From NCBI RefSeq assembly GCF_009931435.1, contig NZ_CP043414.1: a DNA stretch of 64,000 nucleotides; one strand, written 5' to 3'. The notes below the pieces were generated by a model that had not been told where the DNA came from, did not search any database, and saw only the letters and a list, made by a program, of their open reading frames with translations. The position numbers were made by a program, and so were the translations under genes. This document shows positions 5,275 to 43,194 of this stretch, piece by piece. Numbering within the stretch: the stretch's first letter is position 1; each line of letters opens with the position of its first letter. This DNA comes from Escherichia coli (GTDB lineage Bacteria > Pseudomonadota > Gammaproteobacteria > Enterobacterales > Enterobacteriaceae).

Positions 5275-6240
5275 ATGAGTAGACAACGCATTTTTATCGC
5301 TGGCCATCGCGGAATGGTCGGTTCTGCCATCAGGCGGCAGCTCGAACAGCGCGGTGATGTGGAACTGGTATTACGCACCCGCGACGAGCTGAACCTGCTG
5401 GACAGCCGCGCGGTGCATGATTTCTTTGCCAGCGAACGCATTGACCAGGTCTATCTGGCGGCGGCGAAAGTGGGCGGCATTGTTGCCAACAACACCTATC
5501 CGGCGGATTTCATCTACCAGAACATGATGATTGAGAGCAACATCATTCACGCCGCGCATCAGAACGACGTGAACAAACTGCTGTTTCTCGGATCGTCCTG
5601 CATCTACCCGAAACTGGCAAAACAGCCGATGGCAGAAAGCGAGCTGTTGCAGGGCACGCTGGAGCCGACTAACGAGCCTTATGCCATTGCCAAAATCGCC
5701 GGGATCAAACTGTGCGAATCTTACAACCGCCAGTATGGACGCGATTACCGCTCGGTCATGCCAACCAACCTGTACGGGCCACACGACAACTTCCATCCGA
5801 GTAACTCGCATGTGATCCCAGCATTGCTGCGTCGCTTCCACGAGGCGACGGCACAGAATGCACCGGACGTGGTGGTGTGGGGCAGCGGTACACCGATGCG
5901 TGAATTTCTGCACGTCGATGATATGGCGGCGGCAAGCATTCATGTGATGGAGCTGGCGCACGAAGTCTGGCTGGAAAACACCCAGCCGATGTTGTCGCAC
6001 ATTAACGTCGGTACGGGCGTTGACTGCACTATCCGCGAGCTGGCGCAAACCATCGCCAAAGTGGTGGGTTACAAAGGTCGGGTGGTTTTTGATGCCAGTA
6101 AACCGGATGGTACGCCGCGCAAACTGCTGGATGTGACGCGCCTGCATCAGCTTGGCTGGTATCACGAAATCTCACTGGAAGCGGGGCTTGCCAGCACTTA
6201 CCAGTGGTTCCTTGAGAATCAAGACCGCTTTCGGGGGTAA
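5275..6240 (+). CDS. fcl: GDP-L-fucose synthase (GDP-4-keto-6-deoxymannose epimerase/reductase)
   Basis: 321-aa ORF; [15 protein letters not shown](P)-binding motif; recognised as Fcl/WcaG. Confidence 0.95.
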
Positions 6241-6722
6241 TGATGTTTTTACGTCAGGAAGACTTTGCCACGGTAGTGCGCTCCACCCCGCTTGTCTCTC
6301 TCGACTTTATTGTCGAGAACAGTCGCGGCGAGTTTCTGCTTGGCAAAAGAACCAACCGCCCGGCGCAGGGTTACTGGTTTGTGCCGGGAGGGCGCGTGCA
6401 GAAAGACGAAACGCTGGAAGCCGCATTTGAGCGGCTGACGATGGCGGAACTGGGGCTGCGTCTGCCGATAACAGCAGGCCAGTTTTACGGTGTCTGGCAG
6501 CACTTTTATGACGATAACTTCTCCGGCATGGATTTCACCACTCACTATGTGGTGCTCGGTTTTCGCTTCAGAGTATCGGAAGAAGAGCTGTTACTGCCGG
6601 ATGAGCAGCATGACGATTACCGCTGGCTGACGCCGGATGCACTGCTCGCCAGTGACAATGTTCACGCTAACAGCCGCGCCTATTTTCTCGCTGAGAAGCG
6701 TGCCGGAGTACCCGGATTATGA
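6240..6722 (+). CDS. gmm: GDP-mannose mannosyl hydrolase (NUDIX)
   Basis: 160-aa ORF; NUDIX-like segment; conserved position between fcl and wcaI. Confidence 0.9.
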
Positions 6723-9382: not shown

Positions 9383-9590
<208 letters not shown>

Positions 9591-9661
9591 TGTAAATAAC
9601 GACAAAAATAAAATTGGCCGTTTCGGTCAGGGCCAACTATTGCCTGAAAAAGGGTAACGAC

Positions 9662-11032
9662 ATGAAAAAATTAACCTGCTTTAAAGCCTATGATATTCGC
9701 GGGAAATTAGGCGAAGAACTGAATGAAGATATTGCCTGGCGCATTGGGCGTGCCTATGGCGAATTTCTCAAACCGAAAACCATTGTGTTAGGCGGTGATG
9801 TCCGTCTCACCAGCGAAACCTTAAAACTGGCGCTGGCAAAAGGTTTACAGGATGCGGGCGTTGACGTGCTGGATATCGGTATGTCCGGCACCGAAGAGAT
9901 CTATTTCGCCACGTTCCATCTCGGCGTGGATGGCGGCATTGAAGTTACTGCCAGCCATAATCCGATGGATTACAACGGCATGAAGCTGGTGCGCGAAGGG
10001 GCTCGCCCGATCAGCGGTGATACCGGACTGCGCGATGTCCAGCGCCTGGCTGAAGCCAACGACTTTCCTCCCGTCGATGAAACCAAACGCGGTCGCTATC
10101 AGCAAATCAACCTGCGTGACGCTTACGTTGATCACCTGTTCGGTTATATCAATGTCAAAAACCTCACGCCGCTCAAGCTGGTGATCAACTCCGGGAACGG
10201 CGCAGCGGGTCCGGTGGTGGACGCCATTGAAGCCCGCTTTAAAGCCCTCGGCGCGCCCGTGGAATTAATCAAAGTGCACAACACGCCGGACGGCAATTTC
10301 CCCAACGGTATTCCTAACCCACTACTGCCGGAATGCCGCGACGACACCCGCAATGCGGTCATCAAACACGGCGCGGATATGGGCATTGCCTTTGATGGCG
10401 ATTTTGACCGCTGTTTTCTGTTTGACGAAAAAGGGCAGTTTATCGAGGGCTACTACATTGTCGGCCTGCTGGCAGAAGCGTTCCTCGAAAAAAATCCCGG
10501 CGCGAAGATCATCCACGATCCTCGTCTCTCCTGGAATACCGTTGATGTGGTGACTGCCGCAGGCGGCACCCCGGTAATGTCGAAAACCGGACACGCCTTT
10601 ATTAAAGAACGTATGCGCAAGGAAGACGCCATCTACGGTGGCGAAATGAGCGCCCACCATTACTTCCGTGATTTCGCTTACTGCGACAGCGGCATGATCC
10701 CATGGCTGCTGGTCGCCGAACTGGTGTGCCTGAAAGGAAAAACGCTGGGCGAACTGGTGCGCGACCGGATGGCGGCGTTTCCGGCAAGCGGTGAGATCAA
10801 CAGCAAACTGGCGCAACCCGTTGAGGCGATTAACCGCGTGGAACAGCACTTTAGCCGTGAGGCGCTGGCGGTGGATCGCACCGATGGTATCAGCATGACC
10901 TTTGCCGACTGGCGCTTTAACCTGCGCTCCTCCAACACCGAACCGGTGGTGCGGTTGAATGTGGAATCGCGCGGTGATGTACCGCTGATGGAAGCGCGAA
11001 CGCGAACTCTGCTGACGTTGCTGAACGAGTAA
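9662..11032 (+). CDS. cpsG: phosphomannomutase
   Basis: ORF 9614..11032; internal start [14 protein letters not shown] at 9662 gives 456 aa; active-site motif TASHNP. Confidence 0.95.
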
Positions 11033-11039
11033 TGTCATT

Positions 11040-11160
11040 ACTTTCCCCCTCACCCTGACGCTCTACTGCCTGCGGAGAGAAGTGAGCACGGAACTTTCTT
11101 CTCCCCCTCGCCCCTTTGGGGAGAGGGCCGGGGTGAGGGGCGAGGCGACAATAGAACAGG
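11040..11160. repeat. GC-rich imperfect inverted-repeat element (REP-like) between cpsG and wcaJ
   Basis: ccccctcaccc (about 11046) pairs with ggggtgagggg (about 11131); ccccctcgcccc (about 11103) pairs with ggggcgagg (about 11138). Confidence 0.4.
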
Positions 11161-11167
11161 AACAACG

Positions 11168-12562
11168 ATGACAAATCTAAAAAAGCGCGAGCGAGCGAAA
11201 ACCAATGCATCGTTAATCTCTATGGTGCAACGCTTTTCAGATATCACCATCATGTTTGCCGGACTATGGCTGGTTTGCGAAGTGAGCGGACTGTCATTCC
11301 TCTACATGCACCTGTTGGTGGCGTTGATTACGCTGGTGGTGTTCCAGATGCTGGGCGGCATCACCGATTTTTATCGCTCATGGCGCGGTGTTCGGGCAGC
11401 GACAGAATTTGCCCTGTTGCTACAAAACTGGACCTTAAGCGTGATTTTCAGCGCCGGACTGGTGGCGTTCAACAATGATTTCGACACGCAACTGAAAATC
11501 TGGCTGGCGTGGTATGGGCTGACCAGTATCGGACTGGTGGTTTGCCGTTCATGTATTCGCATTGGGGCGGGCTGGCTGCGTAATCATGGCTATAACAAGC
11601 GCATGGTCGCGGTGGCGGGGGATTTAGCCGCCGGACAAATGCTGATGGAGAGCTTCCGTAATCAGCCGTGGTTAGGGTTTGAAGTGGTGGGCGTTTACCA
11701 CGACCCGAAACCGGGCGGCGTTTCTAACGACTGGGCGGGCAATCTGCAACAGCTGGTCGAGGATGCTAAAGCGGGCAAGATTCATAACGTCTATATCGCG
11801 ATGCAAATGTGCGACGGCGCACGAGTGAAAAAACTGGTCCATCAACTGGCGGACACCACCTGTTCGGTGCTGCTGATCCCCGACGTCTTTACCTTCAACA
11901 TTCTCCATTCACGTCTCGAAGAGATGAACGGCGTTCCGGTGGTGCCGCTGTACGATACGCCGCTTTCCGGGGTTAACCGCCTGCTCAAACGTGCGGAAGA
12001 CATTGTGCTGGCGACGCTTATCCTGCTGCTGATCTCCCCGGTGCTGTGCTGCATTGCGCTGGCGGTGAAACTCAGTTCACCTGGGCCGGTTATTTTCCGC
12101 CAGACTCGCTACGGCATGGATGGCAAGCCGATCAAAGTGTGGAAGTTCCGTTCCATGAAAGTGATGGAGAACGACAAAGTGGTGACCCAGGCGACGCAGA
12201 ACGATCCGCGCGTCACCAAAGTGGGGAACTTTCTGCGCCGCACCTCGCTGGATGAACTGCCGCAGTTTATCAATGTGCTGACCGGGGGGATGTCGATTGT
12301 GGGTCCACGTCCGCACGCGGTGGCGCATAACGAACAGTATCGCCAGCTCATTGAAGGCTACATGCTGCGCCATAAAGTGAAACCGGGCATTACCGGCTGG
12401 GCGCAGATTAACGGCTGGCGCGGCGAAACCGACACGCTGGAGAAAATGGAAAAACGCGTCGAGTTCGACCTTGAGTACATCCGCGAATGGAGCGTCTGGT
12501 TCGATATCAAAATCGTTTTCCTGACGGTATTCAAAGGATTCGTTAACAAAGCGGCATATTGA
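11168..12562 (+). CDS. wcaJ: UDP-glucose:undecaprenyl-phosphate glucose-1-phosphate transferase (colanic acid initiating enzyme)
   Basis: 464-aa ORF; N-terminal TM segments and C-terminal sugar-transferase domain (PRPHAVAHNEQY ... ITGWAQINGWRGET). Confidence 0.9.
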   Translation: MTNLKKRERAKTNASLISMVQRFSDITIMFAGLWLVCEVSGLSFLYMHLLVALITLVVFQMLGGITDFYRSWRGVRAATEFALLLQNWTLSVIFSAGLVAFNNDFDTQLKIWLAWYGLTSIGLVVCRSCIRIGAGWLRNHGYNKRMVAVAGDLAAGQMLMESFRNQPWLGFEVVGVYHDPKPGGVSNDWAGNLQQLVEDAKAGKIHNVYIAMQMCDGARVKKLVHQLADTTCSVLLIPDVFTFNILHSRLEEMNGVPVVPLYDTPLSGVNRLLKRAEDIVLATLILLLISPVLCCIALAVKLSSPGPVIFRQTRYGMDGKPIKVWKFRSMKVMENDKVVTQATQNDPRVTKVGNFLRRTSLDELPQFINVLTGGMSIVGPRPHAVAHNEQYRQLIEGYMLRHKVKPGITGWAQINGWRGETDTLEKMEKRVEFDLEYIREWSVWFDIKIVFLTVFKGFVNKAAY

Positions 12563-20565: not shown

Positions 20566-20604
20566 CAGTGCACTGGTAGCTGTTAAGCCAGGGGCGGTAG
20601 CGTG
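20566..20604 (+). promoter_or_regulatory. 39-bp JUMPstart element containing the ops site (RfaH-dependent antitermination signal)
   Basis: cagtgcactggtagctgttaagccaggggcggtagcgtg; ops core ggcggtagcgtg at 20593-20604. Confidence 0.8.
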
Positions 20605-40110: not shown

Positions 40111-40147
40111 AATAAAAAAGCCCCCGGAAGGTGATCTTCCGGGGGCT
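40111..40147 (-). terminator. his attenuator terminator
   Basis: Minus-strand hairpin gcccccggaag-atcac-cttccgggggc followed by a T-run, between hisL and hisG. Confidence 0.85.
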
Positions 40148-40210
40148 TTCTCATGCGTTCATGCACCACTGGAAGATCTGAATGTCTTCCAGCACACATC
40201 GCCTGAAAGA

Positions 40211-40261
40211 CTAGTCAGGATGATGGTGATGATGGTGGTGTTTAAATTGAACGCGTGTCAT
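40211..40261 (-). CDS. hisL: his operon leader peptide
   Basis: Minus-strand ATGACACGCGTTCAATTTAAACACCACCATCATCACCATCATCCTGACTAG encodes MTRVQFKHHHHHHHPD (seven consecutive His codons). Confidence 0.95.
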   Translation of the reverse strand: MTRVQFKHHHHHHHPD

Positions 40262-42928: not shown

Positions 42929-43194
42929 AGAAAAATTATTATGACAAGCCTCTCATTCTCTTGTCATTTCCCCCCCATTTAGGCACAATGCGCCGCTGTC
43001 AAAAAATGACTAAAAACCGACGTTTAATTAGCGTCGGTTATTTTTTGCTTCAAACCAATCATTCATACCAAGAGGCCGGGCTTCGTACCGGATAGATATT
43101 TACTAAAAATCGACAGTTGTTGTCGCTGAGGAATCCAAAAAAATGGGGCAATTTTTTGCTTACGCGACGGTTATCACCGTAAAGGAGAATGACC

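Follow-up and report, generated by a model that had tools for sequence, protein, structure and literature searches.

The GC-rich palindrome between cpsG and wcaJ in Escherichia coli as a very probable inverted pair of BoxC (PIT/TMECO) repeats

The spacer between cpsG and wcaJ in the colanic-acid operon of Escherichia coli contains a GC-rich palindrome, which raises the question of what this element is and what it might do in the operon. We analyzed a 64,000-nucleotide stretch of E. coli chromosome, here called the window, in which the 801 bases around the cpsG–wcaJ spacer are 100% identical to several complete genomes. The gene names were taken from the RefSeq annotation of a 100%-identical genome, which lists cpsG as a colanic-acid phosphomannomutase and wcaJ as an undecaprenyl-phosphate glucose phosphotransferase; both genes are on the + strand. 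The spacer is 135 bp long (11033-11167), and the element is intergenic, positioned after the cpsG stop codon (11030-11032) and before the wcaJ ATG at 11168. No annotated feature lay under the match among the genomes listed in the spacer-only searches. The original prediction had placed a GC-rich imperfect palindrome at 11040-11160. Both of the arm pairs it named are present in the sequence and the place was right, but the structured core is slightly narrower, running from about 11045 to 11145. The repeat does not extend into the ribosome-binding region of wcaJ, which is located 17 nt downstream of the base at which pairing in the fold ends. We consider the palindrome very likely to be an inverted pair of BoxC (PIT/TMECO) elements, consisting of an intact (+) copy and a decayed (-) copy (Table 1).

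The right-hand copy carries the identification. BoxC, a noncoding and strictly intergenic dispersed repeat of E. coli and its relatives in the Enterobacteriaceae, was described by Bergler et al. in 1992 and by Bachellier et al., was renamed PIT elements by Hoyne and Maher (2000, 2002), and was given the name TMECO by Holder et al. (2015; PMC4666352), who referred to the motif as "earlier described as BoxC." The TMECO consensus of Holder et al. is CCCTCNCCC N3-6 GGGNGAGGG N3 GGGNGAGGG[G/T/C/-], and a regular expression for it matched 11105-11139(+) exactly, followed by G at 11140; this was the only match in the 64-kb window, compared to 0 in 100 shuffles. An nhmmer profile built from 20 published K-12 TMECOs matched the same bases at E=1.7e-10. 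Table 1 of PMC4666352 lists the same 36-mer as that at 11105-11140 under TMECO no. 3 of K-12 ("type B mm"), a copy that we confirmed at its published coordinates, NC_000913.3 282101-282136. The leader at 11083-11104, in which GCACGGAAC precedes a T-rich run, is similar to those of other BoxC copies: it aligns colinearly with the GCACCGAGC..TTTT leaders that K-12 TMECO nos. 3 and 18 and the orthologous pairs of Lelliottia and Enterobacter have upstream; leader and core together form a BoxC unit of roughly 56 bp. The copy at this locus is already known, given that the spacer of E. coli O26:H11 11368 is 100% identical over 125 bases and Supplementary Table S8 of Holder et al. (2015) lists its orthologous copy as TMECO no. 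391 (NC_013361 2875141-2875106), so that the element at cpsG–wcaJ had been catalogued. The catalogue gives no flanking genes, and the terms cpsG and wcaJ are absent from the supplements of that paper.

Table 1. Coordinates in the window of the parts of the cpsG–wcaJ repeat, the wcaJ start region and other matches at the Rfam gathering score
Feature	Position	Strand	Sequence or remark
Putative degenerate inverted BoxC, type-A-like	11045-11082	-	Alignment and weak profile match
Left copy, rc(G2)	11045-11055	read on +	CCCCCTCACCC; complement of G2, then TGA
Left copy, rc(G1)-like	11059-11070	read on +	CGCTCTACTGCC; decayed complement of G1, then TGC
Left copy, rc(C)-like	11074-11082	read on +	GGAGAGAAG; decayed complement of C block
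Leader of (+) copy / spacer of pair	11083-11104	+	TGAGCACGGAACTTTCTTCTCC; GCACGGA..C box, then T-rich run
Intact BoxC core, type B with one stem mismatch ("B mm")	11105-11140	+	CCCTCGCCCCTTTGGGGAGAGGGCCGGGGTGAGGGG
C block	11105-11114	+	CCCTCGCCCC; then loop TTT
G1 block	11118-11127	+	GGGGAGAGGG; then loop CCG
G2 block	11131-11140	+	GGGTGAGGGG; 3' block of intact core
3' extension overlapping 3' end of G2	11137-11145	+	GGGGCGAGG; alternative perfect 10-bp pairing with CCTCGCCCCT at 11106-11115
wcaJ ribosome-binding region and start	11158-11170	+	AGGA 11158-11161, ATG 11168
JUMPstart	20566-20604	+	Rfam gathering score
Histidine operon leader	40112-40235	-	Rfam gathering score
STnc240 sRNA	42974-43048	+	Rfam gathering score
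ALIL pseudoknot (IS3-type frameshift signal)	52182-52298	+	Rfam gathering score
Group II intron catalytic domain	54825-54911	+	Rfam gathering score

The suggestion that the palindrome belongs to another intergenic repeat family, to be checked by looking for further copies in the genome, was borne out. With a 57-bp query from the right half, blastn found related places in 5398 of the 5426 complete E. coli genomes. The number of BoxC-like places per genome had a median of 17 and reached 34. Nearly all of these were chromosomal (86,950 of 86,997, the other 47 being on plasmids), and the element is therefore a dispersed repeat. For K-12, PMC5172473 tabulates 33 BoxC of 51-59 bp from the GenBank annotation. 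What the original prediction did not do was name the family or recognize the left arm as the remnant of a second, inverted copy. Membership of the REP/BIME or ERIC/IRU families, or a palindrome that arose by chance, might be considered for an intergenic palindrome that is GC-rich and has REP units only 1.5 kb upstream. A core pattern of the CGGATGCGGCGTGAACGCCTTATCCG type, taken from the REPs of the window itself and searched with up to 3 mismatches, matched only at 9405 and 9493, and the Rfam naRNA4 match (the REP-derived CssrE family) is at 9451-9521(-); these lie with the two REP units of the neighboring cpsB–cpsG spacer, and nothing was found in 11033-11167, in agreement with the earlier view that the palindrome is not a canonical REP. 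ERIC/IRU sequences contain the conserved core AAGTAAGTGACTGGGGTGAGCG, that of the ERIC2 primer, within a palindrome of roughly 127 bp. This core had no match anywhere in the window, even with three mismatches allowed. Chance is excluded by the shuffles of the TMECO regular expression, of the arm motif and of the fold (both described below), and we assign practically no weight to any of these three explanations. A search of 10500-11700 against Rfam at E<=10 returned only chance-level matches (E>=1.1, at most about 16 bits).

The left half of the spacer was missed by the strict regular expression because it is degenerate, and our identification of it as a decayed inverted BoxC partner draws on alignment and a weak profile match. 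On the minus strand, the TMECO profile gave a partial nhmmer match at 11047-11063, corresponding to the end of G1, the loop and G2, with E=1.1 for the 128 kb searched or roughly 0.002 counting the spacer only. Other genera have intact (-) copies at this locus, with which the left copy is colinear, as it is with K-12 TMECO no. 17. The whole spacer likewise aligned colinearly with intact (-)/(+) BoxC pairs, including the orthologous ones of Lelliottia sp. V86_10 and an Enterobacter MAG and a paralogous one, the K-12 lldD–trmL pair. The sequence of 11033-11104 is single copy, and BLAST found the left half only in the 508 E. coli genomes with the long allele described below. Holder et al. (PMC4666352) reported that inverted BoxC pairs always combine a type A element (loop TTA) with a type B element (loop CCG). 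The loop between G1 and G2 is CCG in the right copy, which makes it type B, and TCA in the left copy, one change from TTA; an A-like left loop with a type B right loop fits the published rule. The K-12 lldD–trmL pair (TMECO nos. 17 and 18) is similarly arranged, with a (-) type A copy followed by a (+) type B copy, both G2 blocks outermost and the T-rich leaders inside. The two pairs differ in that both K-12 copies are intact and 59 bp apart, whereas the left copy at cpsG–wcaJ would be decayed and the cores are about 22 bp apart. Compared to published BoxC/PIT/TMECO elements, nothing essential is different at this locus, given that the consensus, the intergenic position, the multiple copies and the inverted A plus B pair all agree.

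The inverted arrangement also accounts for the fold. CCCCCTCACCC at 11045-11055 is complementary to GGGGTGAGGGG at 11130-11140, and an inverted-repeat search extended these arms to 19 nt with 84% complementarity; the same search found CCTCGCCCCT (11106-11115) to be perfectly complementary to AGGGGCGAGG (11136-11145). The motif CCCCTCNCCC-N5-30-GGGNGAGGGG occurs once in the 64-kb window and in 0 of 100 shuffles. A long imperfect hairpin had been anticipated, with RNA folding as the check, and we confirmed it. The 135-nt spacer RNA folded at -59.0 kcal/mol compared to -45.4 +/- 3.6 in dinucleotide shuffles (z -3.76), a value matched by 1 of 200 shuffles. The antisense RNA folded at -56.6 kcal/mol (z -2.31), and the two strands folded as DNA gave z-scores of -2.8 and -2.7. 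In the RNA fold, the intact C/G1 hairpin is nested inside the long hairpin of the outer arms. In the inverted BoxC pair, it is the two outermost G2-type blocks that pair to give the long imperfect hairpin, which can form because the decayed left copy retains the outermost block complementary to G2. Because the GC-rich stem is very stable and lies between genes of the same operon, it could also be taken for an intrinsic terminator or attenuator between cpsG and wcaJ. No T/U run follows the stem, where the sequence reads cgaggcgacaatagaac, no T run follows any of the orthologous hairpins, the terminator scan reported no site within the repeat, and PIT elements had neither promoter nor terminator activity in published tests. 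We consider this explanation extremely unlikely. The promoter scan likewise found no sigma-70-like promoter in the repeat. A terminator-like match at 11013-11037 was discounted, having a weak stem with 3 GC pairs and overlapping the cpsG stop codon.

The locus is biallelic in E. coli. Of the complete genomes, 508-514 have the long allele, compared to about 4,150 with a short allele, in which a spacer of 54-55 bp holds a simple CCCTTACCC/GGGTAAGGG hairpin; the K-12 spacer is 54 bp, with the hairpin CCCTTACCC-cactgc-GGGTAAGGG. Short-allele matches cover 169-171 bases compared to 251 for the long allele. Carriers of the long allele are diverse and include O26, O145, an ST131 strain and an O2:H1 strain. 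The sequence is at least 99% identical in 434 of 508 carriers, with variants such as that of MY203L1 (point changes in the C and G2 blocks), that of B20105 (a 1-bp deletion in G1) and that of E. coli E69, which has 127 bp, with eight bases fewer at the 3' end of G2, reading GGGGTGAGGCGAC, a run shorter by one C ahead of the C block and a left arm with point changes (CCCCCTCCCCC). The E69 variant indicates that the long allele has diverged within Escherichia. By blastn, the flanking genes are 97.1-97.6% identical to those of K-12 (about 2.5-3% divergence), with evenly spread mismatches and no excess beside the spacer. A dispersed family with inverted-repeat architecture and a presence/absence polymorphism at the site could be a mobile, MITE-like element inserted by a transposase. 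However, the long allele replaces the short hairpin rather than being inserted beside it, and comparison of the two alleles revealed no target-site duplication at either junction, which argues against a classical MITE insertion. Only 47 of the 86,997 BoxC-like places are on plasmids, and Holder et al. (PMC4666352) saw no association of TMECOs with transposons, phages, plasmids or mobile elements. We therefore regard such an insertion as highly improbable. The long and short spacers provide a clean biallelic marker inside the colanic-acid operon, the long form being present in about 11% of complete E. coli genomes.

What such a repeat might do at the DNA level was addressed by Holder et al. (PMC4666352). 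In vitro, the isolated G-rich strand forms a very stable hairpin or a purine-motif intrastrand triplex; oligonucleotides of type B mm formed a triplex by CD and NMR, with a Tm of about 70 C, and caused polymerase stops, and addition of the complementary strand to the folded G-rich strand restored the duplex. The copy at cpsG–wcaJ would be triplex-competent as judged from its sequence, given that G2 laid antiparallel on G1 makes only G.G, A.A and T.A contacts at all 10 positions. The G-rich half has four G3+ runs, and an RNA G-quadruplex is possible there on the same grounds; for the DNA oligonucleotide, a G4 was excluded by NMR (Holder et al., PMC4666352). At the DNA level, the element may be a structure-prone repeat in which fold-backs favor local deletion or replacement, which would explain the long/short polymorphism. 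Holder et al. proposed that non-B structure (intrastrand triplex, hairpin or cruciform) destabilizes such loci and generates variation. This proposal draws on the in vitro triplex and polymerase stops and on a greater between-strain variability of TMECO loci relative to control loci (PMC4666352), and at cpsG–wcaJ it is in line with a polymorphism by replacement or indel and with the deletions (1 bp and 8 bp) and point changes that long-allele variants have within the repeat. On the other side, no triplex was detected when the K-12 copy that shares the 36-mer was footprinted in vivo with DMS (PMC4666352), and the high identity of the long allele among its carriers indicates that it is not hypermutable on a population time scale. 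The even divergence of the flanks from K-12, with no local excess at the spacer, also speaks against destabilization, and we consider the non-B proposal rather unlikely as the explanation for this locus.

The identification as an inverted BoxC pair leaves room for a second question, which is what occupies this spacer in related bacteria. A degenerate pattern for the 5' codons of wcaJ, applied to one genome per species, yielded 28 Enterobacteriaceae loci, a set in which the closest outgroups are thinly sampled and which does not include E. albertii, E. fergusonii or S. enterica subsp. enterica. A GC-rich structure was present in the spacer of all 28. It ends most commonly 15-21 nt upstream of the wcaJ ATG, and the string aacaggaacaacgATG or a close variant sits just 3' of it. 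The forms differ. A simple hairpin with the arm core of the E. coli short allele, CCCTTACC (C) and GGGTAAGG (G), is found in Salmonella arizonae and in Citrobacter sedlakii, C. amalonaticus and C. koseri, and a simple hairpin with C/G1-type arms (CCCTCTCCC/GGGAGAGGG) is found in Leclercia, Silvania, Lelliottia nimipressuralis and Pseudescherichia. Enterobacter sp. kpr-6 has an overlapping palindrome with a TMECO on both strands. Full or decayed inverted pairs occur in Lelliottia V86_10 and WAP21, the Enterobacter MAG, Pseudenterobacter, Huaxiibacter and Leclercia UBA7405, as well as in the E. coli long allele. Finally, an expanded array of 247 bp lies upstream of wcaJ in Enterobacteriaceae bacterium RIT714 (about 6117-6363 of the fetched locus), where outer BoxC copies enclose several further tandem gatcgcccggagcgg-tttcaccctcgcc units; the RNA of this array folds at -147 kcal/mol (z -7.8). 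We did not find this multi-genus series of structures at cpsG–wcaJ reported in the literature searched. The short form is probably ancestral for the Salmonella/Citrobacter/E. coli clade, because Salmonella, Citrobacter and most E. coli share the arm core of the short hairpin. In a sample from which the closest outgroups are absent, this would make the long allele of E. coli a derived or re-acquired form.

The recurrence of a structure at this site brings up a reading in which a selected intercistronic RNA stem-loop, stabilizing or processing the mRNA upstream of the wcaJ ribosome-binding site, is the primary element and BoxC is only one of its forms. With both E. coli alleles added to the 28 loci, all 30 spacers contain a GC-rich structure, most with z-scores of -2 to -9.5, the arm sequences vary between clades, and the distance to the ATG is largely kept. 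In a pair table that was core-anchored by hand and, like the per-sequence folds, leans toward structure, three base pairs of the short-hairpin clade have changed on both sides with pairing kept, and position 4 of the hairpin goes from C-G through U.G in Citrobacter R56 to U-A in NCU1. In Kosakonia, three U.G pairs lie in the main stem and five G.U pairs in the fold as a whole; the antisense strand there folds 17.6 kcal/mol less stably than the sense strand. The sense RNA fold was more stable than the antisense in 24 of the 30 spacers (Wilcoxon p=0.002), among sequences that are phylogenetically nonindependent. These related sequences and hand-anchored pairs are suggestive of a structure that is maintained across relatives. 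Against selection, however, the independent lineages are few and the pair table was built by hand, and some Siccibacter spacers are weak (z -1.0 and -2.1). When 16 short spacers were aligned by plain MAFFT, RNAalifold found almost no consensus structure because the hairpins are out of register, and for this reason we used per-sequence folds and the anchored pair table. Mutational bias alone can also keep hairpins. Interior deletion of an inverted BoxC pair yields a short hairpin, a process that corresponds to the "palindrome effect" noted by Holder et al. (PMC4666352), and since deletions within a palindrome tend to leave a hairpin by mutation alone, the recurrence of hairpins need not reflect selection. 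Our literature search for wcaJ, cpsG and stem-loop together found no paper that joins them. The reading in which a selected stem-loop comes first is one that we hold as possible but are inclined to doubt.

For the inverted BoxC pair itself, a mechanism at the RNA level can be outlined. The element would be cotranscribed in the sense orientation within the colanic-acid operon and would fold as the long hairpin, thereby taking the place of the intercistronic stem-loop found in all Enterobacteriaceae loci fetched. Such a stem-loop would most plausibly impede decay or processing of the mRNA between cpsG and wcaJ rather than terminate transcription. REP/BIME elements, for example at malE–malF, act as intercistronic mRNA stabilizers. 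They resemble the BoxC element at cpsG–wcaJ in being intergenic, within an operon transcript and able to form a stable stem-loop without a U-tract, but they belong to a different sequence family, whose core is absent from this spacer, and stabilizer activity for BoxC is only hypothetical. A local role as an mRNA stem-loop, that is, as a barrier to decay or processing, is plausible, and we would give any RNA-level role of the element a tentative, minority chance. It is somewhat less probable still that a conserved Enterobacteriaceae stem-loop has been selected about 15-21 nt before the wcaJ start, with BoxC there forming part of an allelic series. That the simple hairpin, the overlapping palindrome, the full inverted pair and the expanded array would together constitute such a series is similarly doubtful. 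If true, the site would show how BoxC arises from, collapses into or is copied onto ordinary hairpins, and it would bear on whether the motif was inserted or deleted during evolution, which Holder et al. (PMC4666352) left open. The repeat was described in 1992 and re-described in 2000 and 2015, and its identification at this spacer matters little. To our knowledge, no function of BoxC has ever been demonstrated. The multi-genus series is the only part that may merit follow-up, offering a tractable place to ask whether BoxC hairpins affect operon mRNA stability and how BoxC copies are gained and lost.

Several other features were observed in the course of the analysis. In K-12, the copy with the identical 36-mer is located inside the annotated cryptic prophage CP4-6, where a truncated inverted BoxC hairpin, ccccaaaggggagagggg, precedes it. 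The cpsB–cpsG spacer is 280 bp in the window compared to 104 bp in K-12; at 9383-9571, it contains a tandem pair of 88-bp REP/BIME units delimited by the 13-mer cgtcgcatcaggc, of which K-12 has a single copy. Directly upstream of the cpsG start codon at 9662, the "algC RNA" motif of Rfam (RF02929) matched 9608-9657 (+) with 77.5 bits.
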